Positions 12,667 to 48,810 are shown, counted from the first letter of the whole stretch. The stretch is DNA of 58,492 nucleotides, filler included, from Dugesia japonica (GCA_001938525.1; 5 parts of 5 records of this genome joined end to end with filler, not necessarily neighbours in it); one strand, 5' to 3'. Made by a program: numbers and translations. The notes: a model not told the origin generated them from the sequence alone.

Positions 12667-12716
12667 NNNNNNNNNNNNNNNNNNNNNNNNNNNNNNNNNN
12701 NNNNNNNNNNNNNNNN

Positions 12717-12774
<58 letters not shown>

Positions 12775-15700: not shown

Positions 15701-16449
15701 AACTTTGATAAATTTGTAGCAAAAAGTAATGTAAAGTTGTCAATGAAACTTACGCAAGTGCAGTTAAGAAATCAAGTTTTGAACCAAAATATAATAAAAT
15801 GGGAAGTGATTATAGAGGCCATTATTTTCATCTCAAAGAAACTACTCTCAAATATTTTAATATTTCTAGTAATTCGACAAACGATTCAAGGAATAGAATA
15901 ATAATAAGCAGTTAAGAGATATAAATGAAGACCAAGGAAGAGATTTTCCAAACATTCTCTGAAATATGTAGCAACAAAATTTTTTAACAGATGTCAAGGT
16001 AAAATGCCTCCCAGACTAGAATTCATACAGTCTGGTGCTTTTTTTGCTGTGCAGAAACAGACCATAGACGAATAAACTGTCCTTTAAAGAAAATCAGGGA
16101 TATTACATAGATATATAGTAGAGATAATACTGAGATAATTTTTTTGAGATTTCTACTTTAATTTCTAAAATTTTAATAAGAAATTAATTTTAGTTGAAAA
16201 AAACACTGATAGAAATATATTTTAGATTTTAAAATACTTATAACTGTTTTGAGATTTTTTATAAAATCATTGTTTAAAAATTAAGAGTAACTTATATAAA
16301 TTTATAGACGTTGGATTATCATATTCTCTGATTTTGTTTAATTGGATTGAAAAAGCAAATTTACTTCTTTCTTTTTTTGTTTTATTAATAAATTTATGGT
16401 TATTAAAACACTTTTAAATTCAATGGTGAACTCTCAGACTCGCCTAACA

Positions 16450-16511
<62 letters not shown>

Positions 16512-16584
16512 NNNNNNNNNNNNNNNNNNNNNNNNNNNNNNNNNNNNNNNNNNNNNNNNNNNNNNNNNNNNNNNNNNNNNNNNN

Positions 16585-16622
<38 letters not shown>

Positions 16623-19600
16623 TATAACACTTACATCTTAAAATATTTAATCCCTTAACTTAAGATTGATTTTTTAGGTGAATGATGTAAAATTGATTTG
16701 TTTTTATTATAGAACTTGATTTTTCAGATGATTTTCTTAATAAATTTTAAGTATTATTTTTTAAAAAATGTAATATGAGTGAGCACATACCAAAGACGTT
16801 GTAAACATACTTAAGATTTAATCGTTAAATAAATCTTTTTGTAATCTAAATTTTTTTTACTTTATCAATTAAAATGCTAATATCTTTTAAATCACATTTT
16901 TATTTTTTTGTAATTTCTCAATAATTTACTAAAGTTTAAATGGTGACAAACTGTGGAAATAGTACAAAATTCTAGAAAGTTTTATTGAATATTAAAATTT
17001 TGATAGTGAATGATAATACAATTAAACATGTTTTTGTGCGGTTTTTTCTACGATTTTTTTATATGACACACGAAAAATTGCATAAAAACTGCACAAAAAC
17101 AAGTTTTAACAATCGATTTTATTAATTTAGGTGTTAGATGAATCTGTAACATTCATCTTTGCATTTGAAAATTGAACACTTTTCATTCTAAGATTTATTT
17201 AAGACAACAACAAAAACTCAACATATCAATTTGTCTTTTCAAACAAATTTAAAGGCTTTATAACTGAGACTTGAACAAAAAATATTAGTTTATCAAAATA
17301 ATTTTTAAATAAAATTTTAAAATACCATAGCAAAATGTTTTAAAGAAAATTACAAAAATTATATATTTAATTAATTTATTTAATATATTTCAAATTTTCT
17401 ACAAATTATAAATTTAAAGTTTAGTTTTTTGTAAACATTTAAATACGTAAAATTNTTATGATTATTTAACAAATTTATTTTATGATTTAATTAAAAATAT
17501 TTAATAAATAATTTTAACAATTTCGTTTCAATATACATAAAATTTAAAATTGCTTTTAAAAACTACTTTAATTAAAATTATTTATTAAATATTTTTAATT
17601 GTATTATCAAATACAAATTAATATATCATTCAAAAATTTTACTAAGCATGATTCTGTTTTCAGGTAAGTAGAAGTTCATTTAACACTAAATGTTAGTAAA
17701 TAAAAATTTTTGATCTAAAATTTCGACAATTTTTCTTTAAAAAGTTAACATTTTTCTTGTAAAACACCAATTATTTGGTTTATAATAAAAGCAATTACTC
17801 GATAAAACATTGAGACTAAACGCAACAAGGACCCCGCTAGATGGAGGAGGCAATGTGTAGAGAGTATTATTGTTTCCCAAATTTACTGAAATTGGTTTTC
17901 GTTCTTTCATTTCATATTTGAGGAAATCATCTTTGGTAATAATTCCACCTTCTGCTGAGATTTCAGCAATCATTTTATCTACTAATGATCCATTTTTCAT
18001 AGCATATGGTTCATTAGATAAAATTCTCATAGTATTTGCAAGTTTTGGGATTTTTATGATGTCACCAAATACTTTCGGTTTTCCAGTTTTGGAATCAGTT
18101 AATACTTTTCTATATGTTTAAATATTTAAATTAAAATATTTTTTTAATATCTAACCTCAATTCTGAAAATTCAGATGCTGTTGCAGTTTTAAAAAAATAA
18201 TCAATTCCGCTTTGTATACTTTTTGAAACATAAAACCCATTCGTTAATATGTCGATAGATGGTTCGAATAATACTTTCCATTCCAATTTTCCAAATCTTT
18301 TATGAATTTCGTAATAACCAGAAACCAATCCCATTACAGCAATAGATTTACCACCTTTCACAAAAATGAAAAACGTCATAACTTCATTCTAATTATTCAA
18401 TAATATTATTTTAAATTTTCTATGACAGTGTTCTCAGAATCTCAGAATGAACAAGATATGGAGTAACATGCATAAACTCCAACTCGCCTAATCCAGTCCT
18501 TTAATCCAGTTTAATCTTCTCAAATCTAATTTAATTTTATTGTAATTGTGAGGTAAATTAGATAGACAGATTGATTCGGGGAATTTTTTTGTGGCAAATC
18601 AATAAAAGAATAATAANNNNNNNNNNNNNNNNNNNNNNNNNNNNNNNNNNNNNNNNNNNNNNNNNNGTAATTATCCCAAACTTTTGTGGTTTTCTCATTT
18701 ATTTAAAAATACAATTTTAACTGAAACAATCTTTTTTAAAACAAATTTATCTTAAATTTCTATTTCACATTATGACTATTTCTTCAATTTCTGTGTGTGT
18801 ATGAATGTTGCCAATATTACAGAGAAAGAATAATATCAAGGACATTAGAATGATATACGGTATCTTCTATTCCGGCATAAAATGACCAAAACTATGAAAC
18901 AGTTAATAGTATTGTTAAAGATACTTGAAGTCAGGTGAGATTTTGCATTCAAACGCGAGGTTTATAGGCATTCTAAACTAAGTTTAGAAGCTAACAAAGC
19001 ACTGCTTACCATTGTGAACCAAGAAGGTACTGAGACATTAGTCCAGTTTTCTAACCGGACAACTTTAGTACTGAAGTATCCAAAAGTGCAATTGACAAGT
19101 CACTATGTTAATTCTACTATATTCTAAAAAGAGTCACATTATTGCCTGTATGGTGAAAATGTGAAGCTACAATTAATGAAAGAGAGGTTTATGCCTCTAA
19201 CTATCAGACTTTTAAAACAAGTAATGACAATAAAAACTTGATTTTTCTACATGAGATTGGATTTGTGGTTTTGACAAGACCAAGTTGTTGTCAAAGTAAA
19301 AGTGGATAATCCGCTTTCATTAGTGTGTCTGTTGTCAGAAGTAAAAATATTTCTGTTGTACATGCCATTAACAAATATAGTATGATTTACCATAAGGCTC
19401 ATAAGAAAACTGTCAATGGCGACCGCTTCAAGGAGTCTTTGTGAGAGATAAAATCTGATTGTAGAGAAAATGGCATATTAAATCAAATATTCATCATGGA
19501 CAATACCAGAACTCACCATTACAGAGGATTATTTGATGATTCAGAAATTTCAGATTAAAACATTAAATATCTTCTTACTTATTTCAATTTCCTGAACACA

Positions 19601-22294: not shown

Positions 22295-22394
22295 NNNNNN
22301 NNNNNNNNNNNNNNNNNNNNNNNNNNNNNNNNNNNNNNTTAATTAATTAANNNNNNNNNNNNNNNNNNNNNNNNNNNNNNNNNNNNNNNNNNNN

Positions 22395-28518: not shown

Positions 28519-29460
28519 TTAACCAAATGTTGTTACTCGAGAATCTTGATTTATTTCTTTGTTACATCGTAAAAGGTTGTAAATTTTGGTTTTTATGAAA
28601 GCATTTCCAGAAATATAAATGACTGGATTTATTAAAATATTTAAATAAAATAAATAGTACATTAAGTAACTCATGCCTGGAACTGCCCCTGAATTTGATA
28701 AAACAATTGGTATCAAACTTATGGTATATAAAAGCGTTATTATAAATATAAGTCTTCCAAATTTAATAATTTTTTGAAATGCCTTTAAATCCGTTTGGTT
28801 TTCTTTTTTCAATTTGCTATTTCCTATTTTCAAGGAATTTTTTGTTTTCCAAAAGAAATAAATAAAGAGGCTAATGTAAACTAAAATATTCGTTGATAAG
28901 AATATAAAGCATAATACACCATATGTAATTAGATAAAATAGTTTAAGAGATGTTTTTAGAGAACAGGCTAAATCAGTATAAAGTATACCACTAAAAATGA
29001 CATCACAAGAAATACCAATCACATAATAAATAAATATTATAATTTTCATCTTACCAACATTCCATTTAACAGTTGTGGGTAATATAACTGCCAAAAATCT
29101 ATCAACAGCCATGAAAGTAAGGGAAATTACTTCGTATCCTAAAATAACATTTCGAGGCGAAAAAAATAAAATAAGATAAGCGGAATCTGTTTTTGGTTCA
29201 TATTTAATCAAAAATATATTTACAATTAATATTATTGACATGGTAATATCAGTAAAATTCAGCGATTTCATTATAAAATTAAATGTTTTTCGTTTCCCAA
29301 GTATTCGATTATCATTTTTATTGTACTGAAAACAAAGATATATATTTAAAGGAAACCCAATTGAAAGGATGAAACCGTAAAATATAAAAAATTCCAAACC
29401 TGCATTGTCTCTATTGCCCAAACTTTGTAATGAAATGCAAATTGCCATTTTATTTGACAT
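28519..29460 (-). CDS. Single-exon class A (rhodopsin-like) orphan GPCR, 313 aa
   Basis: Intact ORF with about 7 hydrophobic segments: TM1 GFPLN, TM2 LNFTD, TM3 MAVDRF and TM7 INPVIY. Confidence 0.9.
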   Translation of the reverse strand: MSNKMAICISLQSLGNRDNAGLEFFIFYGFILSIGFPLNIYLCFQYNKNDNRILGKRKTFNFIMKSLNFTDITMSIILIVNIFLIKYEPKTDSAYLILFFSPRNVILGYEVISLTFMAVDRFLAVILPTTVKWNVGKMKIIIFIYYVIGISCDVIFSGILYTDLACSLKTSLKLFYLITYGVLCFIFLSTNILVYISLFIYFFWKTKNSLKIGNSKLKKENQTDLKAFQKIIKFGRLIFIITLLYTISLIPIVLSNSGAVPGMSYLMYYLFYLNILINPVIYISGNAFIKTKIYNLLRCNKEINQDSRVTTFG

Positions 29461-30219
29461 TCGATTAGAATTTTAATATATATGTAATAAGAACCAATAA
29501 ACGTTTAGTTTAACTAATTAGTATTTTAACTTTTCATAAAAAATAATTAAATTATAAAATTTTAATGTTTGTAATATTACAATGCTCTATTTTAACTTTT
29601 TAGAGAATGAAGTCAGTTAAATTTCCATTAAAAGACTACATCTAAAAATATTATTTTGATTAAAAAATCTAATTGCAGACATCAATAAGTATCAATTAAG
29701 TGGTTCAATGTAGTAATTTTTTGTACATTTTTGTTAATAAAATTCATAACCATGTTTCAGTTCAAAATCAAGATTGTGTAGCTATTTACAGTAAATTATC
29801 TTTTCAACAAAATTTTTTTTTCAACTAATTTTAACTTATGTCAACCAAAACTCAATCAATTAAATTTATGAAAGTGATTTAAACTTATTTTTTTCATTAG
29901 CTTTGTGAATACAGTAAAAGTAACAGACGCAAGGTCCAAGCTCTCCTCAAATTGTTGTATTTACCATAAACGATAATTATAAAGAGAATGTGTATATGAG
30001 ATGTAATAAGTTTTAATCACATTATAAATGTTCTGTAAGGCTCTCATAAGTGCCTCTGATGCATACANNNNNNNNNNNNNNNNNNNNNNNNNNNNNNNNN
30101 NNNNNNNNNNNNNNNNNNNNNNNNNNNNNNNNNNNNNNNNNNNNNNNNNNNNNNNNNNNNNNNNNNNNNNNNNNNNNNNNNNNNNNNNNNNNNNNNNNNN
30201 NAAATGAACTTTCATGATT

Positions 30220-30650
30220 TCACTTGAGCAATGAACTGCAGATTAATATTCGATCGATTAAACGTTTTTCATTTAAATAGTGTGGCACACAAATATCATA
30301 ACGAGACACATAATCCATCTTAAGCAAATGGTTTGAAATGGTCTTTTGAGATAGATTGACAATATTTGCAATCTCACGCGTTGTATAATATGGGTTTTTC
30401 TTAATCAAACCTACGATTTGTTCAGTCTCTGTCACCAATGGTCTATCTGAACGTTCACCATCTTCACATGTTATATCACCGACACGAAACATTTGAAACC
30501 AGTTCTGACATACGCGTTCACTCACGACACTTTCCCCATACACCTCACAAATTTTCATTTTGGTTTGCATTGAATTTTTTTTCTTTACGGAAATAAAATA
30601 ACATCAAACAACGAAAATATTGATTCTTGTTTTCCTATAATTTCAACTCA
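30220..30650 (-). mobile_element. Mariner transposase N-terminal half
   Basis: ICEVYGESVVSERVCQNWFQMFR...EDGERSDRP, TTREIA and ICVPHYL (WVPHEL-like). Confidence 0.9.
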
Positions 30651-31608: not shown

Positions 31609-33603
31609 ATAATAATTCTTTTTTTGAAAATTTTTTTTTTAAACAATATTTATTTCTTTTTGTCATTTTTTTAAAAATTATTATACATAAAAAATTCTCA
31701 TTATGTAAACAATTATGCAATCTATCTAATAAATCCAATTAATTAAAAACATTCAATAAAGATTTAGAAAGACNNNNNNNNNNNNNNNNNNNNNNNNNNN
31801 NNNNNNNNNNNNNNNNNTTAATTAATTAANNNNNNNNNNNNNNNNNNNNNNNNNNNNNNNNNNNNNNNNNNNNTCGTCCGCTCATTGGTTCCTGGAGTCA
31901 GATTTTCTCGAATCTTGGAAATGATCGCACCACAACTTTGCTTGCCTTCATGCGCGATTGATTGGCAACGAATTTGGAAAACCAAATTCGTGTCGTCAAG
32001 TGGATGCTCTAGTGATACTGTCTGGTTTTCCAACTTATTCATCGCTTGGAAAAACCAGACATAAACATGACTGGACCATATTAAGTTAACTTCTAAATAA
32101 TATTAAACGCTTATTAGCGTTATTTATAATAACGATAATGGGTCGTAGAGGGCCTTTTTACATTTTATTATAGTATTTTCTATTATTTTTATTATTTATC
32201 TTATTATTTCCTACTTGTGCATCCAAATTTGGGTCTTCTAAGCCCAATTTTCATTTTTTCCCGTTTCAATAATAATCGTATAATAATTATAATAATAATA
32301 ATTACATAATAATAANNNNNNNNNNNNNNNNNNNNNNNNNNNNNNNNNNNNNNNNNNNNNNNNNNNNNNNNNNNNNNNNNNNNNNNNNNNNNNNNNNNNN
32401 NNNATTTTCGTATTATTTGGGGATGCTTTGTTAGCTCTTTTGCACTAAAATTATATGTTCTAGCCCAACAATAGTAACACTTATGAAAATATCAAGGGAA
32501 AAATAAATCGAAATAAATAGAAAAAATAAAAAAAGAAAATGATTAGTAAAATTAAATATAAGAATAAAGAAAGGAAAAATAATGAAAAAGTAATGAGTTT
32601 ACATTAAACAAAAAAGAAAAACAAAGAGTAAAAAAAGTGGTAGCATTTGTCTTAAAATAAAAAGTGTAGAAAAAGAAAATATATATTTAAACGATATAAA
32701 AATTTTAGAGAATAAATAAAAAATGAACGGCTAATAAATATATTCAAAAGGCGAAAGTTTACTTAATTAATTCAAAATGACGAAGAAAACCAAACGAAAG
32801 TACAAAAACAGCAAAACTTATATAATAAAGGATGGCTCATTATATTAGATAGTTAGAATTTGAATGAAGAAAATAGTGTAAATAAGAGCAGACCAAAATG
32901 TGAATGGAAAGTGGTCTACGGAAGTCAACAATCAAAATACCATGTATGTAAAAAATGACAGATAATAAAATAAAAAACAATAGCGTAAGATTATAAATTC
33001 GTAAATAATGAACAAATAACAAAAAATTTCAAATTAAACAAATGAAGAAAAGAGTTGAAGCAAAATATAGTATTAAAAATATTATATAAAATTGGGAAAT
33101 CAAAAATAAATTCTTAGTATTAAAAATGGGTTACTGAAATAATTTCGACAATGAAATAATTTGACGTTGAAATTAATTTTGTTAATCATTTTGAGATTAA
33201 TTTTTCTATAGTTATTTCAACAGTCATTAAATATAAAAATTCTAAATAATTACGAATGTGTGAGAGTATTGTTTATATTTATTTCATAGGCAAAATTATT
33301 TCATTTTCAAAATTAATTCATTTCAGTAACCCGTTTTTACACTTTGAATTTATTTTTAATAAATTTGTTGGGGTCCTACCTGAGATGAGTGAAAAAGATT
33401 GTGGCTGGGGAAAAACAGCCCTCAGGGGACCCGTCCAAGAATTTGCCCTGACGCCCCTAGGTCAGGTACTCAGCATATGGTGGTTGACCTCACTCTTAAT
33501 GNGGTGCACGCCCATAAGCCTTTTTATTCGGGTTTACCAGTTTTCCCTTAACATACACAAAAATTTAAGCCAGTGATACTTGAAACATTTATTACAATAA
33601 TAT

Positions 33604-33867
33604 TTACAATTCGTCTAGTACGCTGAGGTCCAACCACTGGTCTGGGTTGGTAGCCAAAAAGTTGAACACCGCGATATCATCGTCGTCGTCCCATTGAATC
33701 ACATCTGGATTACCGATCTGACGGGAAAGGTCAGCGATATATTGTTTTAAAAAGTCTATCTTTCTAAGCAGTAGTTGCTTGTTTTCTGTTCCAGGGCTTT
33801 GGTTTGGGCCACCAAATCGTTTTGTTTTCGAACTATCAAATCCAACTTTTTTATGAGTTTGTCTCAC
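33604..33867 (-). CDS. Cassette ORF E, 87 aa, with KKVGF and an acidic/hydrophobic C-terminus
   Basis: Open frame with no ATG that begins at CCCAG|TG. AATAAA lies at 33593-33588. Confidence 0.55.
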   Translation of the reverse strand: MRQTHKKVGFDSSKTKRFGGPNQSPGTENKQLLLRKIDFLKQYIADLSRQIGNPDVIQWDDDDDIAVFNFLATNPDQWLDLSVLDEL

Positions 33868-33986
33868 TGGGCGAGATGCCTAAGAAGGGCCTGGTCTGTT
33901 TTACGTTTTAAGTGGCGTTCTAGCAATAGACGGCGCATGATACGGTGACATCTCCTCAGACTAGTCGGGAACACGATTCGAGGCAC
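33864..33986 (-). CDS. Cassette ORF D, 40 aa, Arg/Leu-rich
   Basis: Begins at the strong acceptor TTTTCTTTAG|TG. Its stop overlaps the start of ORF E. Confidence 0.4.
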   Translation of the reverse strand: MPRIVFPTSLRRCHRIMRRLLLERHLKRKTDQALLRHLAQ

Positions 33987-34102
33987 TAAAGAAAAATTAT
34001 AGTACAGTCGGTGAACACCAAATTTACAATTCGAAGAAACCAAGTAAAAAATATGCAAATAAATAATTTATTAAAGTCAATCAAAAATGTAAACATGATA
34101 AC

Positions 34103-34462
34103 TCAGGAGCTGTTAGTCTGAGTGCTTTTATCGATCAAGAGGGGAGTCAAAGGGGTAGCTGCCCTCAACTTCAATATATTTTCCAATAGTTGATTCTCAC
34201 GCTCCTGATAAGATTTGATAGTTTCAGTAAAAGTTTCGACCTGTGTTTTCCATACCCTCTCTTGATGCTGGGTGGCGTCTGCTTCAGATTTATAAGACAA
34301 GCCTTTACGCTTATAGCGTTTAACCTTGGCTTCTGCTGCCGCAGTCTCCGCTTCCCATCGCCTTTTAGCGAGCCGATACAAATCCCATGTGAGCTCTATG
34401 TCCTCACTGGTTTCACGTAACTTTTTATTCGGGGCCTGGGATCTACTCAATGATGAATGCAC
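34103..34462 (-). CDS. Cassette ORF C, 119 aa, coiled-coil-like protein ending in DKSTQT
   Basis: Open frame with no ATG that begins at TATTTCAG|TG. AATAAA lies at 34072-34067. Confidence 0.65.
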   Translation of the reverse strand: MHSSLSRSQAPNKKLRETSEDIELTWDLYRLAKRRWEAETAAAEAKVKRYKRKGLSYKSEADATQHQERVWKTQVETFTETIKSYQERENQLLENILKLRAATPLTPLLIDKSTQTNSS

Positions 34463-34757
34463 TGAAATACAAACACATTAAAGGATGGCAGACTCTTAGC
34501 AGATTTATAATTTTAATAAATGTGGACAGACTGGTTTACCATGGACAAAAATAACAACGAGTGGAGTATGTAATATTTAGTCTGTGTAACAACCTTACAT
34601 TGAAATATTATTATTTTTTTTTTAACATGAAGACTATGAAATCCGATAACATATGGTTATTAAAGCAGAAATTTATTTTAATCGACGTATAAAGATATAA
34701 CATAAATTAACAGTAAGTAAGACACCTATTTATTCACATTCTACACAGAAATAAGGT

Positions 34758-35114
34758 TTATTGGTTATTATTATTCGTGACAACAATGGGTGCTGTGTTT
34801 TCGATATCCGTCACTACGGTTGGCTCCCTAACCCCCCAGAGTAGATTAGATATGAAAGCCTGCACCGCGGGAGTTGGAGCGGGAGTGGGAGGCCGATTAT
34901 GGAAAGATGTCGCTAATGTTCGATCAGGACCTTTCCAGGTTTGGTAACGCTGACGCTCGCCAAAGTCTTTTATGCGCGCTACGATGGATTCCACTGGGGG
35001 CAAATTTGACCTGTCGGCCAAGATGCCCACGTCACGATTGTGGGTGTTGTGGTGACAGCGGAAGATTATTTGGCTAGTTTGTCTATCGATTACTCGTTCC
35101 CATATAGATTCCAT
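34758..35114 (-). CDS. Cassette ORF B, 118 aa (MESIWERVIDR...), with a Pro/Thr-rich segment
   Basis: ATG lies 2 nt after the acceptor TTTTTTCCTAG. GC-richer than the flanks. AATAAA at the stop and at 34734-34729. Confidence 0.65.
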   Translation of the reverse strand: MESIWERVIDRQTSQIIFRCHHNTHNRDVGILADRSNLPPVESIVARIKDFGERQRYQTWKGPDRTLATSFHNRPPTPAPTPAVQAFISNLLWGVREPTVVTDIENTAPIVVTNNNNQ

Positions 35115-35258
35115 ATCTAGGAAAAAAACTGAATAAATAGTAAAGTTAAAATAAAACAAAATTACGATATCAGAAACAATTAATAACAATAATAATCAAA
35201 ACATTGCAAAGGTTTATACACATTTTATTTTTTTCATAGGGAAATTAACCAGCCAAAA

Positions 35259-35441
35259 TCACTCTTTATCTAAATCTACCCCGTCGTCCGAGGGGAACAT
35301 TTCTGCTAGACAACAGAGGTCTGTCTCATCTGGGTGCTCTATTTTTCCTCTGGCCAGTAGGTGAGCCATTAACTGTTTTTTCCGACTAATTTGCCGCTGC
35401 TTTCTAATCCAACGTAGGGTATGATATAATTCTGCTGGCAT
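35259..35441 (-). CDS. Cassette ORF A, 60 aa, with a basic N-half and DLCCLAEMFPSDD
   Basis: ATG lies 1 nt after the acceptor TTCTTTAG. AATAAA at 35229-35224. Confidence 0.55.
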   Translation of the reverse strand: MPAELYHTLRWIRKQRQISRKKQLMAHLLARGKIEHPDETDLCCLAEMFPSDDGVDLDKE

Positions 35442-37144
35442 GCTAAAGAATGAAATCATTAACCGCAACATTCAACCCATGACTTAGTTCCCTAAAACTA
35501 ATAGTAGTCGCTGACTATTAATATCACTATGGGGTTTACGTCATTAAAAAGGTAATACCTAAAGGAATGATATTAATTTTGATTGTAATAGTCTTGTCAA
35601 GGAAATAATAATTGGTCTAACATCATCAATAATAACCATAAAAAGTAGTACCACAACATCAAGCAACAGGAACTGAATCATTTTGGCGTTAATAATATAG
35701 CAGAAGGAAAAATATTCCCCATAGTGTTCAAAAGCATGAGAATAATAATATTGACATCAGGAATGGCACCAATGTGGTTAATGGGAATCATAATTTTAAA
35801 TTTTCCATTCGATAGATATTATATTAAGAGGGTGATGCTACTCCGGATAAATTACTAGTAATAACACTAATGGTATAATTATATGGTGATTGTCACAAAA
35901 ATAGTGATAAAAATAAGGCCATTACTAATAGTAGTAATAATGATGATTTTAACAATAAGAAAACTATGAATCATAATAATTATAATAATTATAAAATTTT
36001 ATTTTTAAAACTTCTGCACGTCATCGTTGCTTGGTGATTTTCCCCTTTGATAACTGATTAAATTGATTTGCAACATGTCGGGGTGTGTAGGATTAGTCTC
36101 GGGTATGTGTGCAAGATCAGAGTTGAGCAACAACATCCAGTCAACATAATGAACACACACTCTAATAGTGTGCCTTTCGAGTTGGTGCACATGAAAATTC
36201 TACTGCCAGTTACAATTTAAGTGATGGATCACTGTTTCCTAGAAAAAATCATGAAATGCGATAATTATTTCCATTCCATGATAAAACTTGCTGCCATTCC
36301 GTATCAGTGAAATTCAGCCGATCAGAGCCCGTGATAGTCACATTGGCAGATACTTATCATTAAAACCTGTGGATTTATTATCATTTCGAAACAACTGAAG
36401 TAGTTTATTGTTTTGTTAAATAAATTTTTGAAATTTTATTTTTCTTCAATCACAATTTTGGCATTAAATTTTTGTTATAAAATGATGAAACACAAAAAAG
36501 GGAAAACAGGATGGATTCAACTTTTAGTTTATATTTTTACCACACAGGTAAGTATAAATTTGTTCAGATCTAAATTACCGGGTTTTAAGATATTTATTTA
36601 TTAATATTTTCTTTAATTTAACGAAGGTTAAAACGGAATCTACCGTAGAATGTCATTTAAGAGTCTAAGATTTTCATTTACTTTTCCATTATCATTCAAA
36701 GTTAACAGTAGTCTATTTAATATAAATTAATACGTTTAATTGACTAAATAATGAATTGAGATTTTAATATAAGTAATTTATTAGAAATAATAAACATCTA
36801 AAATTTTTCGATCATACAATTCTTTACATAATAAAATAATAATTTACTTCTTGATATCAACTGCGAATTTCTGCAACGGGTTTGGTTCAAGATTAAAGTT
36901 TCTCTTCCGATTTCGAGTGATGACTTTTCGAATAGATCGAAGTGAATTCTTCTTTTTTCTTTTTATAATTAATTTAATCAGAATCAAAAAGGGTGCTACT
37001 TTGATTTCCTTTTAAGGCGGAATTCAAATTTCTTCGTCCGCAGTTAATTAGTATAATACTATTCCTTCTCTTGATAATTTTTCGATTATGTGGTTTTGGA
37101 GTTCACAATTGTTATAAAAATTTGTTGTTTTTGATGCTAAATTC

Positions 37145-37165
37145 GGGGGTCCTTTTATAGGATTT
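37145..37165 (-). promoter_or_regulatory. TATA box (CCTATAAAAGG) oriented toward the cassette
   Basis: Consensus TATAAAA at 37159-37153 in a GC-flanked context, about 650 bp inside the right terminus. Confidence 0.55.
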
Positions 37166-37819
37166 TCTGCACACCCCAACTTCTTCCAGATTCGTTAGTT
37201 ATTTTTAGATCAACATTTTCTGATTTTATTGGTTCCAGTGCCAATTTCCTAAATATTTTTTCGGAATTTTGGAGTTACCATTGGCGTCTATTTTTGGACT
37301 GAGACATGATAATCGTGTGTTTGTTTTATTTTTATTTTTAGATCTCTTATTGGCCCGATCTTGGAGACCCTGCAGCAATCTTATGGCTGGTGGTAAGTTT
37401 TTTCTTCCTGGCAATTTCGATGCATCTTATTATTTTCCTTCTGTATTTTCTTACCCGGATTCTCTCCGATTTTCCTGAACGGAGTTATTCGGGTAAAACA
37501 GAATTTTATCTAATTTTGCTTCTTTTTATTTTTAAAATTAATTAATATTCTTTTCTGTTAATTGATTATTTTCCATATTGCTTTTCTTGGTTTTTATTAT
37601 TAATTAAATAATTCTTCTTAATTCCCAATATTGATGTAAGTTGGTTTTATGTTACCTGGTTCTTCATATCTATTTCTGATTTTGTTTTATTCTTTTCTAA
37701 TGATTATTTCGCGCTTTGCCTTTGTTATTGGTAAATATGATGGTCCTGCCGTTCTTTTCTGTTGATTCAGTCTTTCTGGTCTTCTTTCGTTTTTTAACGG
37801 GTGTTTCACCCCAACATAT

Positions 37820-39060
37820 TTAATGGCTGCTGAAATAACTATAGAAAAATAATTGTGTATTTTTGTTTAAAAATATCGATATTTTTAAATATAAAATTTA
37901 TATTCTCAGATTATTTGTCGAAATATGATGGATTATTCTTAGATCTTTTTAACTTTAAAACAATTGTGATAGTGAATAAAAAGTATGAATAATTGTAAAG
38001 ATCTCAATTTTACTAATTTGACAAACAACGCATCATTTTATTTGCTGAAGAAAACAATGTACCCGGGAATTTTCAGAATGTACGACGATGTCGAAACATT
38101 AATCTGAAAACAACGAAATATTTTGATCTATACGGAATAAAAAAGGGCTGTAAGATTTTGATTGTAGTTGCTTTCATAGACGCTCATACCAGTTTGGGTA
38201 CACCCGATCTCGTTCGATCTCGTTTGCGCCAAGTCTTTCAAGGTTCTCTTAGAATCATTTATGTGCCTTAGAAGAAGTTAATCATTAGATCATCGATGGG
38301 ATACTCCAATCAGCTAGTAGAATCTGATCCTGCTAGTTGATTTCCCTACGACATCCGATCTACGATGCCCAGTAATGGGGTTTCTTCGCTTGAAAGGGCA
38401 ATGTTAATCTCGGCGTTAAAATACGTGTAGTTCACTACGAAAAATTTTTGAAAAAGAAGACGAAGCATTTGGATTTGAAGAAAGATTCTGAAAGCCTTTC
38501 TTTTGGCCATCAACAATGCTTAAAGATATAGAGGGGCTCTAAATTATCAACGGAATGGAGAGTATGTGAGTATCTATTAGAAGAAGATAGAAGATATGGT
38601 AGAGAAGTTAATGGCTCATAACATGGAACAAAAATAATTAACAAAGGAGCTTATAATGAATAGTTTCAATGACAGGAAGATAAAACATAAGATCAAATCA
38701 GGGAAAATATAAAAAGTATTATATGTATTTCAAACAATGAAAAAGTAGAAAGACATAAAAGACGAAGTAAACATTGAAGAAATAAATGTAGTTCGTAACT
38801 ACAGAAATGCAGAAGTCCAGAACAAATAAGTTTCAACAAGAGTTGTAACGAAGGGATACAACAAAACAGAAACAACGAAAGACGAGAAATCACATGTTGA
38901 ACTTGTAACAAATAAGTCATGGAAGCAGAAATTGTCAAGAAAGAAAATAAGTCCAATACATGTTAGTCTGAACAATACTTAAGAAGAGACTGTTGCAAAG
39001 TTAATTGCTCAAGATGCAAAAATAAAGAACATTACAAAGGTAGACTGTTATACAAATATG
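37820..39060 (+). mobile_element. Decayed Gypsy 5' region and gag, paralogous to 57250-58290, interrupted by an unrelated ~255-bp insert at about 38183-38440
   Basis: Shares CAACGCATCATT, GTTGCTTTCATAGA and GCTCTAAATTATC with the other copy. Knuckle remnant ITC*TCNK*V. Confidence 0.8.
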
Positions 39061-39699
39061 AAAATACAGTTTAATTATCAGAACAAGGGTGATAGAATCA
39101 ATTATTGAACATCAGTCTTGAATCACTGGGTCTCGAATGTATATAGGCTTATATCAGATTGAAGGAGGGCAAACCAGGCGCCTAAACCTATTTATAAAAT
39201 CAAGTAACATAAATATATAATGAATCAGTTAAGTTACAACTAAAATGGCATGAATCCATAAAACATCAAATTTTTTATTTATTTCTAAAACGTCCACATA
39301 ATGTTATAATATTATCATTTATGACAAAATTTAAGAAATGCTAATGTTTTCAGTTGAAATTTACTTTAAGTGATTACTGGCCAAAGCTACGCTCTTGAAA
39401 TTCATATTTTTTATGTAAATATGGGAAACAGAATGGAAAGGGCACCAAAGAACTCAGGTTGCTAAATGATTAGTTTGCCCTGAGCGCCTGAAAACCTTAG
39501 TCCAGCGCTGGTGGTACTATCGGTTGGAATTAAATATTCTGCTAAAATTTCTTAATCGTTGTTCATGAACTGAGACCAAATTTCTGCCAGAGTATTCACA
39601 GCCTTGTTAAAATTTTGCTTTAATTGGTAGTTGTTTTTCCAACACCATCAAGATTTAAATCAAAGAGGTCATGAGGTAGTACCAAGCCTACGAGTTCTC

Positions 39700-40540
39700 T
39701 TGTAAGTTGTGCTATATATCTTTTCATTTAGAAAAGAATTCGGAAATAGCAAAGAAAGATATTATCCAAACAAAACGAATAATTACTCAAGAAAGAATGG
39801 AAGTCATGTTAATTAAATTGAAAATAATAAAAGAAATCGTTTATATAGAGAAGACAAATGCCACTATTGTAATGAAGGACCAAATATTTATCAAGATGAA
39901 TACCGAAATGGCGACGCTTCAAAATAGTATAAATAAAAATGTAAATGAAAGAAAGGAGGATAATGAGTAGATGAGTACAATGATGTAAAAAAAGGTTTGC
40001 AAGTTTGATAAGAAAAAATTGATTAGAGGTCAACCAGAGATTATCAATGATACAAATGGAGAAGTCGAAAATGAAATTCTGACGATAGAAGAAATAAAGC
40101 GGTAAAAGATAGGCTATGACAAGATGCAAGATAGACGAAGTATTATGGTTGAAATACAAGGAGTAAATGTTGATTGCTTGTTAGAGTTAATGTGATGAGT
40201 TTGAGAATTTTTGAAAGATCGAGAAAAGTCAATATATTAAAAAGTGAAGACAGTTTAAGATGTCTCAATAATAGTCCGCTTCAAATCGTAGGTGCAATAA
40301 AGGTAGAAGTAGAATTCGAGAATAAAATCAAAACAGCTTAATTCATTGTAGTGAAACAGATACATTCAGATCTAATAGAATAGAACTACAGAAATAGTTC
40401 TGATTCTAACTGATGAGCAAGACTAAATGTGAAGATAATGAAATGTATCTTTGTAATATAGAAGTAAATTATGGTCGCAATAGTACGAATAAAAATAGAG
40501 TACAGTGGGCTATAAAATATTGATTAACAAGTTAAATTAA
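39700..40540 (+). mobile_element. Decayed Gypsy gag C-terminus/protease
   Basis: VEIQGVNVDCLL and CLNNSPLQIVGAIKVEVEF resemble retropepsin segments. Confidence 0.55.
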
Positions 40541-40559
40541 AGATTAGAGAAAGTTATCA

Positions 40560-41200
40560 CGACCCATCTTTGTACAGTGCCGTTGATCAACCAGCAACAT
40601 CGATTCGTCAATATGATATACAAAAGCACCTTGCAACAATTTTTTGGGACGTGAAAGAAATTCTGCTGTGTGATGTACTTTCTGAAGGAAAAAATATAAA
40701 CGCAGAAATTTACTGCACTCAGTTGGACAAACTCGTAGATGCGATTCGACAAAAGAGACGCGTCTGCTCGGAAACAGTTTTTAAAATTTCCATTTTCTCT
40801 TAGACAACCCTCGACCGCATACGGCACGATTAAATCAAGGTATGCTTGCTGATATCGGTTTTACGGTATTGTCACATCCACCATACTCCCCAGACATTTC
40901 CCCATCCGACTATTACCTGGTTTCTTCTATGAAAAACTCACTTCGTGCGAAAAATTATCACTCTGCTCAAGAAGTTAACAGGGATTTGGAAAACTCGTTC
41001 GCTTCAAAACCTGTAGAATTCTATGTTAACGGCATAAAACAACTTTCAAAACGCTGGAAAAAGTGTGTGGACCTTAAAGGGGACTATTTTCAACATTTCA
41101 GATACACGAGCGAATGATGTTTGGTTTATATTTCTCAATTTACATGTTGTCTTTATTGGTGAAATAAATATTATTTTCTATCGGACAAGACTTTCGTTCC
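40560..41200 (+). mobile_element. Mariner transposase C-terminal half
   Basis: LATIFWD, INAEIYCTQL, DNPRPH and HPPYSPDISPSDYYL. Confidence 0.93.
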
Positions 41201-41459
41201 NNNNNNNNNNNNNNNNNNNNNNNNNNNNNNNNNNNNNNNNNNNNTTAATTAATTAANNNNNNNNNNNNNNNNNNNNNNNNNNNNNNNNNNNNNNNNNNNN
41301 TATATATATATATATATCATTTCGAACTTTTAAATTTGACTGAGGACTTTGATTATCTTCATATACAATTGAGATCTAAAGTTAAAATTATAAATAACAT
41401 TAATGCTAATATAAAAAATATACCAGCTATCATTTCTTAATTGTTCATCTGTAGGGAAG

Positions 41460-42710
41460 ATACTGCACTGTCCTCTATGCTACTTAATGTGTAATGCCCA
41501 TATGGTACTGATATGTTTTTGTTAGTCCACACTCGCTTATCGTCGTTATTAATGAGTGCAACTTTTTTGTTTTTTTAAACTATATAGCTGGTGGTTTATC
41601 GAACTAATTCTAAATTGATCGATTGAGACTGGCAAATTATTTTCATAACAGTCAAGGTATGACTGATGTTTTAAATTACTATTCTTTATTGTTATGCCTT
41701 TTGCCTTCATTGTTGTTTTATCACTCGAAAGGCTATAACGCTTCGGTCTCAAGGAAATCCATTCTTTGTACTTAACCTCTTTACTTTCATCCTTAAATTT
41801 TCCAATAACAGAAATGAGACTGTTACTGTAAAGGGGGTGGCTTGTGTTGTAATTTGAGGTGTCCAACAACTGATTTGTCCAACAAAATCAAACCGGTTAG
41901 CTTTTCTAAACTTATATCTACAAGTTCAAGGAAAATGCTATCTGTATCGCTGGCTACAATATTTATTTTACAATGCTCTTCTCGACGATACTTTTCCAAC
42001 TCAATGTACTGTAGTTGGTACATTATTAACTTTGAGAGGTCAAGTACCGTCGGTCCAATGTAGCTCGGACGATCTAAATATACAATTTCCTTATTAAAAA
42101 GGACAGCTATCAGATCATCATCTATTTTGATTGATCTTTGAAATCCAGGTTTCGATGTATATGTCATTAACTTCTTGGTTGAATTACACAAGCGCAAATT
42201 TATTCGTTTCTTCATGTTCTCCACCGTGTTCACATATAGGCTATTGTTGAGCAGTTTAGATTAATTTTTTTCTAATTCCGTTTCTGATTCTGACTGCAAT
42301 TTGGTATTCACATCGATATATTTTTGGAAAATTTGTCCCTGTCTAAACCGAACTCCTCTATGAACCTTTGTAACCTCCACACCTAATTCTATATACATCT
42401 GTAGCAGCCTCCAGGGAATTATGTAGGCGTTCTTCGGATAATACGTTAACATTAATTTTTCACTTTACTTCCTGGAGCGCTTTGGTGTTGCGCTGCTACT
42501 GGAGATCGTTTAGATAATCCTGTATTTCTGATGGAATCGCTATATCCACCTCCAATGAGTATCCGTATGATAACGAGTCAAGGTCCGCCCTCTTAGATTC
42601 TTCTAAAACTTCATCTAATCCATTGTGGGCCCACTCTAAATCCGCATAGGGCAGCTTCTGGCTAATGTCCATCCATACAGATTATTAATGTCGATATATA
42701 ATAAGTACAT
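41460..42710 (-). mobile_element. Polinton/Maverick (adintovirus-like) protein-primed DNA polymerase B pseudogene, C-terminal half
   Basis: Motif A YIDINNLYGW, motif B KLLNNSLY..TVEN, motif C VASDTDS, then GKFKDE, LRPKRYS and KAKGI, with frameshifts. Confidence 0.92.
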
Positions 42711-42852
42711 ATATGTCTTGGGAAAAAATAGTGTATAGTGAATATAAATGAACAACTTCTCTGGAAGCCGTCATTTACAATCTACTTGGGCTGTTGGTTT
42801 GATTTTTAAATTTGAAGATTTTGAAAAATATAAAATTTAAAGTAACAATAAA

Positions 42853-43149
42853 ATGAAAGAATTTAGTTGTAATGATTGTAAAGAAAAATTTGATGGTAAA
42901 ATTAATTTATATAAACATTTAGATTTAAGTTTATGTAAAACTGTTTTAAATTATGAATGGCAATGTGGTTATTGTTAGAAAAAATTAAAGATTAGTAAAA
43001 ATAAGTTTAAAGAACATCAAAAATTATGTCTTTTTAATAAATTTAAACCTCCAGGTGTAGTTTACACAAAAGAGGAAATTGAAGAAAATCATAAATATAA
43101 TATTAAAAATTTTATATGTAAGAATAATTATCAATATTATAAAAAATAA
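42853..43149 (+). pseudogene. Small double C2HC zinc-finger ORF with one internal stop
   Basis: MKEFSCNDC...LYKHLDLSLC and WQCGYC*...FKEHQKLC. Confidence 0.6.
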
Positions 43150-44139
43150 CTTTTGTTCCTTCACAAACAAATATCTATCAAAAATATACAAACAATTATT
43201 TACAAATTATTGATAATGAAAGTTAATATTAATTACAAGGGAAAAGTGTCTCAAGCTATAACAAGCAAGATGAAATTTCCAAGTGGCGAACCTTCGCAAA
43301 TTATTGACAAAAATGGACATATATAATTATATTGTTCAAATCAGGAAATTGTCGAATAATGGGGGGCAAAAAACCAATTGAGACAGATAAATTACAATAT
43401 GATATTAAAAATTTTCGATTGCAATCTTTAACAATTGTCATCAATATAGGTGTTGTAATAAATTTATATAAATTGGCAAAGATAACAAAATGCTGATTTG
43501 AACCGGAATATGATCCCTTTATGTGTTAATATATTCTCACCAGGAAAGATATGAATTATGGAGGATATGTGGACAATATACTATCGGATTTGTATAATTT
43601 AATAGATAAAATATAGTCATGTAAATATATTATGTTGTGGTAAGTTAAAATTATTTTTTATAAATTATTTTAATAAAATATGCTACGTTGCAGTATTATA
43701 AATTTTTATTGCAATCTCATTGGTTTAATTTCATTTAGAAATTTTTTTTATAACATTACAAATTTTAATTTAATCATTTTAAAATTTGAAAAACAAAATG
43801 AGTGAATTTAATAATGAAATAAAGAAAGAATAATTCAGAATAAAGCAAATAACAATCAAAGAAGCAATCTACATATTTCTAAGAGAAGCTATTTGAAACT
43901 GTTTCTTATCCACTTGAAACCAGACATTAAGTCTTAGGCATCCACGCTAAGCGCATAGTCTCATAATTTAATCAGTCAAATAGCATTCTGTATTATTAGT
44001 AAAGAATATTTGAATTTCAATTAGTTTTGTAAAGTTTAGGTGGATGGTAGACTTATTTATAGATGAAAATATAGTGAAAGTGGGCGTTAGGCTAAAAAGA
44101 AGTTTGAAAGTCACTGATCTAGACGATATTCTCATGTTT

Positions 44140-46270
44140 ACCGAAACAAAGAAGCAACACTTTAAAATATACAATAAAGTATTGACAGAAATTAAGAATT
44201 CTAGTCTTTAAGTTATTTCAGATAAAATTCAATTCATGCGAAATGAGATTAAATTTTTGTGACACGTTATCAGTAAAAAAGGTGTCAAAACAGATCCAAT
44301 TAAAATAGAAGCAATTAAGAACTTTCTTAAACCAAGAGGCTTTTTAGGAATTTGTAATTATTATCGCAAGTTTATTAAAGATTATTCGAAAAAAGCTAGA
44401 TTGTTGGAATTATTGTGTAGTGGATCGAGTAACAAGAAAATTGAATGGGCGAACGAATTAGAAGAAGTTTTTAATGGAATGAAAGAAGCACTAACGATGT
44501 TTCCAATATTATGTCTTCCAGATATAAATAGAGGATTTATTTTGGACACGGATGCGAGTTTCGATATAATTGGGGCAGTACTTTTTCAAAAGGACAACAA
44601 TGAACAAGAAAGAGTAATTGCATATAGGTCACACGCAATGACGAGTCACGAGAAAGGATATTGCACTATGCGGAAAGAATTACTCGCAATTTACTACTTT
44701 TGTATTCATTTCAAACATTACTTATATGATAAGAGATTTATCCTCAGCACAGACCATAAAGCCATTACTTTTATGCTAAATACCAAGAAGCCGAATACAT
44801 CACAATTTCAAATCTGGATTAATTATTTGAGTAGTTTAGATATAAAATTGTAATATAGAAAATGATCGTTCCATACAAATGCGGATATGTTGTCAAGGAG
44901 TAAATGCGATACTTGTGCACAATCTCAAATGGCTCATGAAGATCCCAAAAGTTGAAAATTAAAAGCAATGATGTTAAATATAGTAGATATTCAAGAGAAA
45001 CACGGTAAGTTTGGAGAAAATGATGAAGGAACATAGATACCTGATGATAAAGTAGAAGAATCGTGATGATGGATCGTGTTTTGTGTCATGCTGGAGCAGA
45101 AAAGGTAGCAGCGTATATGAAGCAAAAATATAACGCGAAACATTTGTGGAGAAAAGTACAAGAAGTGGTTCGAAGCTTTATAACACGTCAGTAAGCTAAA
45201 GTTTTGACAACAAAAACGAAGGAAGAAATGAAAAAGACTCAGCCAGCCGAAATGTTTGAATTGTTATTTATAGATGTGTGTGTACCACTGCGGGAGACAA
45301 GAAGTCGTAAAAAATATGTTCTCAGTATAAGAGATCAATGCAGTAAGTAATTGCCGTGATAGCAATGGCAAAACAAATGTCAATCATTGTCTTAATAGCA
45401 ATGAGAAAACAAGATGAAGATACCATATGGAAAGCATTAATAGAGAAGTGGATATTAAAGTTCGAGTGTCCGAGAGAAATTCAAGTTGATTGTGGAAGAG
45501 TATTTGAGTTTAAATCAATGAAAGATTTTCAGCTAAACATGAAATTACCCTCAGGTTTTCAAGTACATATCATCATAACACAAATAGACAAATCGAGAGA
45601 CAATTTAGAACTATGCGAGATATGATAAATGCGAAACTTAATGAAAGGAAGACCTTAGATTAGGCTGATGTATTGGCAGGTATAGAATTTACCTGGAATG
45701 CTACAAAACTGAAAACTATTGGAAAAAGCCCAGCTGAAATCGTATTTGGGAAGAGAATAAGCAGAAAAATATGGTACAAAACAGATTCTCAAAGAGAGCA
45801 CAAAGAACATGATAAAGAGATATTGACCAAAAGACAATTCGAGGTTGGTGATGAGGTCTTAGTGAAAGTTGAAACCAGAATCAAGAACCAAGATCGTTTT
45901 GAAGGACTCTAAAAGGTCAAAGGAAAGGTTCATGACAGACGTTATATCCTTGGAGATACAAACGGAAAAAGTGTCTAAAGAAACGCAGAGAAGATCAAAT
46001 AATTTCTTAAAAGGGTGGATGTGAGTATGTTTTGAAAAGGAAGTTGAAATTTTTGTGCTTTGATTGAAAAATTTTATTTTTGTAAATTTTTTTATAAAAC
46101 TGCAAATTACAAATTAATTAAGAAGTTAAAATAATTATTTTGAATGGAAGTTTGATCTAAAATTTTGCAATTGTTATTGAAATTGTTTTTTAAAAATCTT
46201 TAAAGTGTTTGTTTGAAATAATTTTACTAGGAGTTGAATTTTAATGTTGATGATCCGATGAGTACTCAAA
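44140..46270 (+). mobile_element. Decayed Gypsy pol (end of RT, RNase H, integrase) with PPT and start of the 3' LTR
   Basis: GVKTDPIKIEAI, FILDTDAS, TDHKAI, LCHAG, IQVDCGRVF and GDEVLVK...FEG, then AAAAGGGTGGA|TGTGAG at about 46010-46025. Confidence 0.93.
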
Positions 46271-46276
46271 ACTCAT

Positions 46277-48810
46277 CTAGCATGCTCTATGAACGATTTC
46301 AATCGTAGATCTACTTTTTAGATTTCCCGTTTTTAGATCCATTGCTATCCCATCTAGCTGTTCAAGAGCATCCATTCCAATCAAACATAGTACTGGGCTA
46401 TCTCTCATTACCAACACATTTTGATTTATAACTCTGCCTACTATAATTAGTTCGACTTTAATCAACCCATTGATATTAAGCGCATTTTTCGATATTGAAC
46501 GGATGACTTCTTCCGAAGTTGTCATATTAATTAGATCTGCATTATCTAAAATTCCCTCTGAAATAATAGTTACACTAGAACCTGAGTCTAGTATTGCCTT
46601 TATAGAGAATTCATTTAGCTGCAATATCTTTAGTATAAACTCTTCTTATTCTTTATTCTCCATAATGGGTATATCTCACTTAGCAATCCCATTAAAAATT
46701 CTTCGCACTCGATCTGATCCCTCACATTACAATGGTTTTCTGAGATTTCCATCATCTCATCAACGATTTGCAAAAGTCCACAGTTATCGCTTGTTCTCTG
46801 AACTTTTGTAAAACTTGAGTACGGATGTACTTTAAACAACACCTCTGGCGTTTCTCGAAATTGGCAATCCTCTTCAGTTTTAATCTCGGATTCTTTTATT
46901 ATTTCCTTTGCCACGCGTTTTTTGCATTTGTCTGTACCAATAATTGTATACAATTCTGTTCCCTACTGCCTCATTTTGGCATATTCAATATATCATCCAG
47001 TATCATTAATTTTACTCGCTAATTCACATTGTAATTTACGTAATAAAATCAACTCTGTTGCTTGAGGTACTGTCTTCATTATCTCGTGATATTGTAAAAT
47101 CTTAACTTCATTTTCCATACTGCGGATCATTCCTAGATCCATAATATAAGCATCCATATACTCCAAAATTTGATTTGCGAATTCTAGTTTAATAATTCTT
47201 AATTTTTCGGATTCACCAATCATTTGAACTAAGTCTCTGACTATACTATTGTCACTAATAGTTTTTGTGAGTTTCTCTCCATTGTTATCAATAATCACTA
47301 CACATACATCTTTTAACCACGAAATTTGCGCATTTCTTGTCCAATCTTTGTCATAATGAGTTTCAATTCCGAAATGTGTTGGGCTCCATTATTACAGTTA
47401 TAAATACATTTCTCCATCACATTTTCCAATTTTTCTTGAGAAAACTTCAGTTTTATTAACTTCTGCAAAATTACTGCAATCTCCTCTATATCTTGTTCGC
47501 AATTTTCAATATTAGATGATAAATGTGAGTAAAGAATTTGGCTTTTATCTACTACGACATCGTTTACCATTTGTGAAATTTGGCCATGAGGATTTGGTAT
47601 TTCACAGTCGATTTGTGGCTCATTTTCTAAAAATATCATTGAATTTTAGTTATCGCTATCTGAGTCCTTTATGGTAGTAAATTTATCCCACTTTCGTTTT
47701 ATATCGTCTAATTCTGCCTCGACTTTTATTCTGCTACTATTATCGGGTGAAAAAGTTGCATTAACTGTAGAATTATTATCAATTTGACTGATTTCTTTAA
47801 AATTGGTTTTTGGAATCGATCAACATTATTTGGACATGATCTTGCAATATTTCTGACATGAATAACATCATTGTTGGCCTTTAGAATTTAATTTATTTCT
47901 TTGCGGAGATGGAAAGCTGAATACAACTACGTGACTTTGGAGTGTAACAATATCTAGATAGATGTCCCGTTACATTGTATTGTTCTCCTGTTTTCACTAT
48001 TTCCTCCATTGCCCATTTTTGTACAGCATTGATTTGCGGGATGTCCTTTAAGTTGACACCTAAAACACGTCACTGTCCTTTTTAAGGCATTTTGTTGAAA
48101 TTGCTGTTTCTCTCGAATTTGGGAAATTGTCTATAATTACTTTGCGACGGTGGATTGAATGTTCTTGGTTTGAAATTTGGTCTCTCTGGTTCAAGTCTCT
48201 GAAAATTTTGCCACCTTAGTGTAATTTGCTGTAGAAGCATTTGTTGTCACCGCAGAATTTACTTCAATCCGTTTAGTCTTTTTAGCGAGATCATCAAAAT
48301 CTTGATAATCTGCTAAACTAAGAATTGTTCTATTACTTGGTTGTGCTCCCATTAGAAATTGATCTTGCAATACATTTTTAATATGATCTCCCTAGTTTTC
48401 TCGTAATCTGAAGACTTTTTCGGCCAAAGTACTCAACTCAAAAGCGGATTTATTCACCGATTCTCCTTCATTTTGTGCTCAATTAAAGTATTTCTTTCTC
48501 ATAATTCTACTCACATCTTCACTGACTAATTTTACGGCTAATGCATCTTTGCAATGTGCCCAAGTATCCAATTGTGAAGCCTCTAACTGACTTTATGCAT
48601 CTCTAGCATCTCCTTTTAGATCTAATGGCAATTGAATTACCATAATTTTTTCTGGCCATCCATAAGCTCTACTATACATATAATAATCTCACATAAAATC
48701 CACAAAATTTACGGCATCTTTTCCATATTGTGATACAGGGAGTTTTAGACAATTTGTTCCATTAACTGCATTATTATCTTCCATATCTCTGAAATTGCTC
48801 TCCATATTGC
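46277..48810 (-). mobile_element. Decayed LTR-retrotransposon gag-protease
   Basis: Gag N-terminus (AYGWPEK), CCHC knuckle CFRCQLKGHPANQC and protease AILDSGSSVTII...CLIGMDAL. Confidence 0.88.

Follow-up and report, generated by a model that had tools for sequence, protein, structure and literature searches.

The window analysed in this work, comprising 58,492 nucleotides of Dugesia japonica (GCA_001938525.1) presented as five parts joined end to end with filler, consists of AT-rich genomic DNA from an animal, with gaps in the assembly. Within it lies a 4.45-kb inserted unit, enclosed by TG...CA termini and carrying a cassette of small open reading frames (ORFs) on the minus strand, which is interpreted here as probably the solo long terminal repeat (LTR) of an unusually large LTR retroelement, a reading that rests on one copy. 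The unit, its ends and the repeats flanking it are as follows, in window coordinates.

33366..37816, no strand assigned: the whole inserted unit, a putative solo LTR of 4451 bp
33366..33374, plus strand: left attachment-type end, TGTTGGGGT, fitting TGTTRNR (consensus from PMC3601003)
37808..37816, plus strand: right attachment-type end, ACCCCAACA, fitting YNYAACA (same consensus, PMC3601003)
33121..33340, no strand assigned: left-flank element resembling a miniature inverted-repeat transposable element (MITE), outside the unit, with 20-bp inverted ends (95%) and 17-bp subterminal repeats
37816..37850, minus strand: 35-bp inverted copy of 33200-33234, outside the unit, with 33/35 matches (94%), containing a supposed primer-binding site (PBS) and marking the right junction

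The two termini are complementary at all nine positions, the inverted repeat stopping at 9 bp with no extension over 60 positions, and together they match the LTR consensus TGTTRNR...YNYAACA, for which an inverted repeat of about 7 bp is expected (PMC3601003). These observations bear out an earlier, sequence-only reading of this DNA, which had described perfect 9-bp inverted termini of the type used by retroviral integrases, an interior free of N-gaps (there is no N-run, and a single ambiguous base, N, at 33502), and a shift in GC content at the left edge, where 100-nt bins rise from 0.19-0.27 over 33000-33399 to 0.55 at 33400-33499.

Taken as a bare pattern, the 9-bp inverted repeat is weak evidence; the window holds 332 perfect TG-starting pairs of this length spanning 0.5-10 kb, six of them with at least five G+C. 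It becomes strong evidence because both ends were located independently of the repeat. Composition change-points, judged against 200 shuffles per interval and above all of them, fell at 33367 on the left (support 33362-33372; log-likelihood gain 30.4, shuffled maximum 11.9) and at 37813 on the right (support 37792-37834; 15.4, shuffled maximum 12.2). The best point was 33367-33370 in three of four left test intervals and 37813 in three of four right ones, with two wider intervals giving the outliers 33317 and 37796, such that six of the eight lay within 4 nt of the unit’s ends. The flanking 35-bp repeat on the right also terminates at 37816, the end of the unit. Among random pairs of positions, 14 in 200,000 trials (~7e-5) had such an inverted repeat within ±15/±2 nt. 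The insertion and its ends are very probably real. Conversely, the chance pairing of two unrelated repeats, or of host sequence, could draw on the abundance of such inverted pairs, the lack of an exact target-site duplication (TSD) and the uneven GC content inside the unit (0.24-0.44), but it is highly improbable given the coincidence of the ends with independent boundaries, and a single consistent minus-strand gene layout over 3.8 kb. The CpG observed/expected ratio is equal within and outside the unit (0.90, 0.91), the termini fold no better than shuffles (z -1.6 to 0.1), and no terminal direct repeat, the criterion for terminal-repeat retrotransposons in miniature (TRIM) or large retrotransposon derivatives (LARD), was found in the unit.

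A gag-like frame begins at about 37985, some 170 nt beyond the unit, and the sequence-only reading had offered the 5′ LTR of this Gypsy gag as one identity for the unit. The spacing, and a TGG 7 nt past the end, do resemble the layout of an LTR, PBS and gag, and the PBS-like TGGCTGCTGAAA noted at about 37824 is present, starting at that 7-nt distance. A tRNA T-stem would give a PBS GG at positions 15-16; this word has none there, and contains the TGAAATAA motif repeated within the left-flank MITE-like element, the middle of which (33200-33234) is the counterpart of the 35-bp inverted copy. Being displaced by 7 nt, unlike a tRNA and inside that MITE-derived copy, the word was rejected as a PBS. 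No polypurine tract (PPT) lies beside the unit at either end, purines occupying 6/15 and 9/15 positions before the two ends. The gag frame, 70-80% identical to a paralog at 57409-58292, has a stop in six of six 150-nt tiles, and on its sequence is much more decayed, and older, than the unit. The DNA upstream of the paralog shows no similarity to the unit’s last 516 nt (alignment scores of 44 and 62, where shuffles average 47 and 61). For these reasons, identity as the 5′ LTR of this gag is scarcely credible. Hence, with no PBS or PPT and the gag link rejected, the unit stands alone, either as a solo LTR, for which the absence of both on each side is expected, or as a DNA element without its enzyme.

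Further observations concern these flanks. About 260 bp of the gag copy after the unit (38181-38441) are missing from the paralog at 57409-58292, probably through a later insertion. Ahead of the second gag copy, a 64-bp tandem repeat (57258-57438) contains a palindromic word also found, once, upstream of the first copy. Without the unit, its flanks would pair into a 35-bp stem enclosing a 131-nt loop, placing the unit at the stem-loop junction, which could reflect a pre-existing hairpin target, a repair-templated inversion, or recombination between two insertions. A larger transposon ending in the 35-bp repeats (33200-33234 and 37816-37850) was rejected, since the left copy lies midway along the separate MITE-like element, and there was no firm support for the 24-30 bp left of the unit as a continuation of the inverted copy (shuffle P=0.11; equalled by 59 of 1950 random AT-rich windows). 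Rfam over 32400-39200 gave one match (E 0.49), the MITE-like hairpin, and no tRNA was found in the window.

The DNA-element alternative would make the unit a non-autonomous derivative of an integrase-bearing element, either a Ginger-like transposon or a DNA virus that integrates, Polinton-like or other, with its ends and small genes retained. DNA viruses typically have arrays of small ORFs that are polyadenylated separately, which counts in favour of such an origin, and 4 kb from the unit, at 41549-43150, lie what seem from their motifs to be fragments of a Polinton-like protein-primed DNA polymerase with a zinc-finger ORF (neither with a Pfam or PDB match). Polinton/Maverick elements, however, have AG...CT ends, long inverted repeats, and genes for a protein-primed DNA polymerase B (pPolB), integrase and capsid, none of which was seen in the unit’s ends, inverted repeat or library scans, leaving the previously suggested Polinton-type origin without support. 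Ginger1 and Ginger2 resemble the unit in having TGTNR ends, lengths of 2.6-7 kb and introns; they produce 4-bp TSDs, with Ginger2 preferring AT-rich targets (PMC2836005), yet their inverted repeats span about 40-270 bp and 50-180 bp respectively (PMC2836005), against a non-extending 9 bp here, and both carry a transposase. In the unit, the Pfam scan found no transposase remnant, and the scanned ORFs contained no transposase (including any Gypsy-like DDE transposase), integrase or reverse transcriptase domain. A derivation of this kind is improbable, and the solo LTR is the preferred reading of the unit’s structure.

The promoter and gene cassette that the sequence-only reading placed within the unit were both recovered, as a promoter-like region followed by a series of ORFs, in the following order along the minus strand.

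37228..37353, minus strand: three CCAAT boxes (37353, 37284, 37232); 3 observed, 1.78 expected, a count that is not significant
37152..37159, minus strand: TATAAAAG box, with a predicted transcription start near 37132; 1 observed, 0.32 expected, not significant alone
36847..37132, minus strand: putative ATG-free leader, ending at the candidate donor GTAAAT (36847)
36353-36252, minus strand: frame B, 34 codons, upstream of ORF A within the A+B region (36005..36353), the 5′ structure of which is tentative
36238-36005, minus strand: ORF A, with candidate acceptor 36239, AATAAA at 36003, an in-frame stop at 36202-36200 and no ATG at its start
35559..35974, minus strand: region H, showing strong 3-periodicity, its decayed frames rich in Ile/Leu/Val (in Asn on the plus strand) and more disrupted than the remaining ORFs; possibly a sixth gene or a degenerate trinucleotide repeat
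35259..35441, minus strand: ORF C, 60 aa, with its ATG directly after acceptor 35443 and AATAAA at 35229
34758..35114, minus strand: ORF D, 118 aa, with its ATG directly after acceptor 35117 and AATAAA at 34734
34103..34477, minus strand: ORF E, 124 open codons lacking an in-frame ATG in this copy, with candidate acceptor 34462 and AATAAA at 34072
33604..33986, minus strand: ORF F/G, with the acceptor of frame F at 33986, an in-frame stop at 33866-33864 and AATAAA at 33593
33523..33528, minus strand: final minus-strand AATAAA, 162 nt from the left end

One line of evidence for a cassette is the coupling of stops to polyadenylation signals. In ORFs A, C, D, E and F/G, the distance from stop to AATAAA is 1, 29, 23, 30 and 10 nt respectively. 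These five were chosen by eye, and the test was redone on all frames of at least 60 aa; an AATAAA lay within about 31 nt of the stop in six of nine on the minus strand (base rate 54/289, P=0.002), and in none of ten on the plus strand. The unit’s minus strand has 21 AATAAA where 10.7 are expected. Minus-strand ORFs of at least 90 aa exceed block shuffles in summed length (P=0.009), at least three such ORFs arising in 47 of 1000, and one case of an acceptor, ATG and 50 codons in succession was observed (P=0.005). The candidate acceptors of all five ORFs resemble the host-gene type, and in D and E the codon-position model ranks the ORF’s own frame best of six. The putative leader contains no ATG in 285 nt, against 4.5 expected, and falls within the unit’s longest ATG-free stretch. 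No paralogy of the ORFs with each other, or with anything else in the window, was found. Two open frames also lie at the termini, one of 39 basic residues at 37697-37816 (minus strand) and one of 69 residues with a hydrophobic stretch at 33367-33576 (plus strand); neither has a Pfam match, and each might be the trailing part of an ORF that began in an internal region since lost.

The single-sequence model of ORF E comprises two long helices and a disordered tail (mean predicted local distance difference test score, pLDDT, 74.8), and this tail contains DKSTQT (34132-34115), an LC8-binding-type motif that is the sole match in 106,241 six-frame residues of the window. Such motifs are described in disordered stretches next to a coiled coil, D/E occupying position +2 (PMC3078936). 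ORF E may well be a helical protein bound by the dynein light chain LC8. In F/G the frames F and G overlap, with a frame break near 33780-33755, and encode a basic stretch, a heptad-like segment and an acidic/aromatic C-terminus; this composition would suggest a coiled coil that is basic and has an acidic tail, in the manner of transcriptional regulators. The cassette’s products would probably be host-interaction factors.

Several results weigh against this interpretation. Firstly, the coding signals are incomplete: strict acceptors are not enriched (2 against 1.7 expected), nor are the CCAAT (3 against 1.8) and TATA (1 against 0.3) counts; the codon-position model prefers the proposed frame in four of nine cases (B, D, E and H), and does not favour the terminal frame or A, C, F and G; a start codon is missing at the acceptors of A and E; and there is an in-frame stop in A, and both a stop and a frame break in F/G. 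Secondly, the structural inferences are imperfect: the model of D is unusable (pLDDT 39.9), and ORF E fits [D/S]K-x-[T/V/I]-Q-[T/V]-[D/E] at all positions except +2, which is N. Thirdly, no significant homolog of any ORF was found in the libraries searched with it (Pfam, PHROGs, PDB sequences, protein collections, Atlas and viral folds), leaving their coding status without support from conservation. Fourthly, the insertion itself departs from expectation, in that the window holds one copy of the unit (the search being confined to it), animal Gypsy LTR sets average 174-695 bp (PMC3601003), and there is no exact TSD at 2-8 bp. The imperfect AATT/TATT duplication proposed by the sequence-only reading describes the flanks correctly, but its 3/4 match, the best found, is uninformative; matches of 3/4, 3/5 and 3/6 in AT-rich sequence are compatible with age or chance.

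The homology searches behind the third point covered the ORFs unevenly. The large protein collections were queried with D, E and G, leaving out A, B, C, F and H, and the word-indexed protein search with G took in longer proteins only. D had no significant relative in the word-indexed search, nor in bacterial and archaeal genomes; ORFs A, C, D, E and F had none among PDB sequences; ORF E had no match among viral folds at E up to 0.001; and a phage DNA search returned no significant relative. In PHROGs, the best match was a non-significant one (E 0.002) of ORF E to a RusA-like family over its helical stretch, while the single full phmmer match of E, to a 410-aa protein (E 3.8e-4, over seven repeated stretches), was taken to be coiled-coil noise. 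For D and E, the best Atlas matches (0.90) were to unnamed clusters and within the range of chance, and the recognition scores of 1446 and 1316 were below the level of known families. However, the best named host-gene match, of a calcium-pump exon to a flatworm protein, is just 68% identical, suggesting that these collections lack close host relatives, which weakens every negative search.

Hence the insertion could be real and its ORFs not functional genes, being instead chance frames or captured, decayed fragments in GC-richer sequence, as the missing homologs, the low Atlas scores, the partial backing of the codon model and the lesions in A and F/G would allow. This is nevertheless quite unlikely: such frames would not explain the strand-specific coupling of stops to AATAAA, the excess of ORF length, the ATG directly after the acceptor in C and D, or the unique LC8-type motif in a fitting context, and missing homologs weigh little where the host’s own genes match so distantly. 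This copy of the unit is mildly decayed, less so than its neighbours.

Under the solo LTR reading, which was among the options of the sequence-only reading and best accommodates the integrase-type ends and the absence of a PBS or PPT, the unit would have been inserted by a retroviral-type integrase, and its internal gag-pol subsequently lost through recombination. The unique 3′ region (U3) would presumably make up most of its length and hold a minus-strand set of about five small accessory genes. The repeated order of acceptor, ORF and AATAAA, with spacers of 560, 112, 272 and 86 nt along that strand, suggests one promoter with several products. Most likely, the CCAAT/TATA promoter near 37150 would drive a single transcript whose non-coding leader is spliced to one or another of several acceptors downstream, with each ORF closed off by a poly(A) signal of its own. 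This cis-splicing of a retained leader to alternative last exons, favoured because the leader is ATG-free, has a little under an even chance of being correct. By analogy with the operons resolved by spliced-leader (SL) trans-splicing in Schistosoma (PMC5832876), the cistrons might alternatively be separated by that process, although this seems rather unlikely; the spacers of 86 and 112 nt are within the 200-bp limit for Schistosoma (PMC5832876), whereas those of 272 and 560 nt exceed it, and the likeness is one of layout only. Separate promoters for each ORF are less likely again.

The orientation of the LTR is a distinct question from that of its cassette. The minus orientation previously assigned holds for the cassette; it is not established for the LTR itself, for which plus is no less likely. 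Either way, the cassette would lie in U3, because a 3.6-kb repeat (R) region is implausible. We lean slightly towards the plus orientation, in which the cassette would run antisense to the genomic RNA, so that this RNA would not be cut up at the cassette’s splice and poly(A) signals; in the minus orientation, genomic RNA would pass about 20 AATAAA and several acceptors. The candidate R-U5 in the plus orientation is the following region.

37360..37816, plus strand: T-rich end, with GTAAGT at 37393 and 37636 and ATTAAA at 37603, folding better than shuffles (z -2.9)

On the plus strand of the unit, GTAAGT is found four times against 0.9 expected, and AATAAA is not enriched (7 against 5.8). The minus orientation is favoured by a canonical AATAAA 162 nt from the end and by the classical order of promoter elements, and a poly(A) signal near the 3′ end is available both ways, as that AATAAA on the minus strand or the T-rich ATTAAA at 37603 on the plus.

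Elsewhere in the window, the assembly joins at 8964-9063, 22295-22394, 31774-31873 and 41201-41300, each two 44-N runs around TTAATTAATTAA, are artefacts, and none is in the unit. An intronless rhodopsin-family receptor gene (7tm_1 ORF) is located at 28519-29472, 3.9 kb from the unit; exons at 11980-18388 presumably belong to a gamma-glutamyl transpeptidase; and a plasma-membrane calcium pump gene occupies 50492-55420, one of its introns being 43 nt. Fragments of mariner-type transposase lie at 30220-30603 and 40536-41200. A decayed Gypsy pol on the plus strand (43850-46020), with an RNase H match, ends in a polypurine tract, after which a different LTR starts (TGTGAG, about 46020), and the decayed gag-protease of another Gypsy element, with a protease match, is on the minus strand at 46250-48800.

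Genes in, or driven from, LTRs are familiar in retroviruses, such as sag of mouse mammary tumour virus (MMTV), nef of human immunodeficiency virus (HIV) and bel of foamy viruses, in LTRs of under 2 kb. Likewise, the adenovirus major late unit combines one promoter with several modules of acceptor, ORF and poly(A) signal, to which the unit’s likeness is an analogy of layout only. The retroviral genes are similar to the cassette in that accessory coding overlaps U3 or runs antisense from the LTR, as does the antisense gene HBZ of human T-cell leukaemia virus type 1 (HTLV-1; PMC11963269), with F/G sharing the basic coiled-coil outline only. They differ in comprising one or two ORFs, rather than about five each with an acceptor and poly(A) signal, and no sequence similarity links them to the unit.

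Among giant retrotransposons, the planarian Gypsy elements Burro / GYPSM1 are also large LTR elements of an AT-rich flatworm genome, with total lengths above 30 kb and internal regions of up to 25 kb, implying multi-kb LTRs, and carry accessory domains aimed at host systems (PMC6431247). These domains, however, are described as belonging to the internal polyprotein or to an internal ORF upstream, rather than to the LTR (PMC6431247), and Pfam found no BIR, BCL2, MATH or ankyrin match in the unit’s ORFs, the comparison with Burro being by description rather than LTR sequence. The Ogre elements of plants have LTRs of 1.9-6.5 kb, a range including 4.45 kb, but their extra ORFs are internal and their lineage distinct (PMC6431247). 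Retand, Grande and RIRE2 have antisense accessory ORFs in a 2.9-6.6 kb segment at the 3′ end, the Grande ORF having its own promoter according to the title of a paper cited there (PMC11963269); yet these mostly TRP28-domain ORFs lie between pol and the 3′ LTR (PMC11963269), and would be lost in a solo LTR, whereas the cassette described here lies within the attachment-type ends. The extracts of PMC8532177, PMC11410931, PMC13465017 and PMC13238120 contain no description of LTR content. At the level of titles and opening lines of abstracts, no account of a multi-gene cassette in an animal LTR was found; the primary literature on Burro and repeat libraries were outside this search, and a prior description is possible.

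LTRs are regarded as regulatory sequence, and solo LTRs as remnants that encode nothing. The fuller proposal, put forward tentatively, is of an animal LTR retroelement family whose 4.45-kb LTR is a self-contained transcription unit, with about five accessory genes, none belonging to a known family, that share a single promoter and are expressed through alternative 3′ splicing and polyadenylation or an SL operon, such that solo LTRs would be dispersed cassettes, with one product binding the host’s LC8. If true, solo LTRs would spread protein-coding genes through the host genome after the loss of gag-pol, and annotation pipelines would miss such LTR-borne genes. The cassette would then supply further candidates for host-interaction proteins, in a lineage in which stem-cell survival is reportedly affected by one giant element (as cited in PMC13465017), and would offer a test of whether a mobile element can use its host’s trans-splicing to run an operon.

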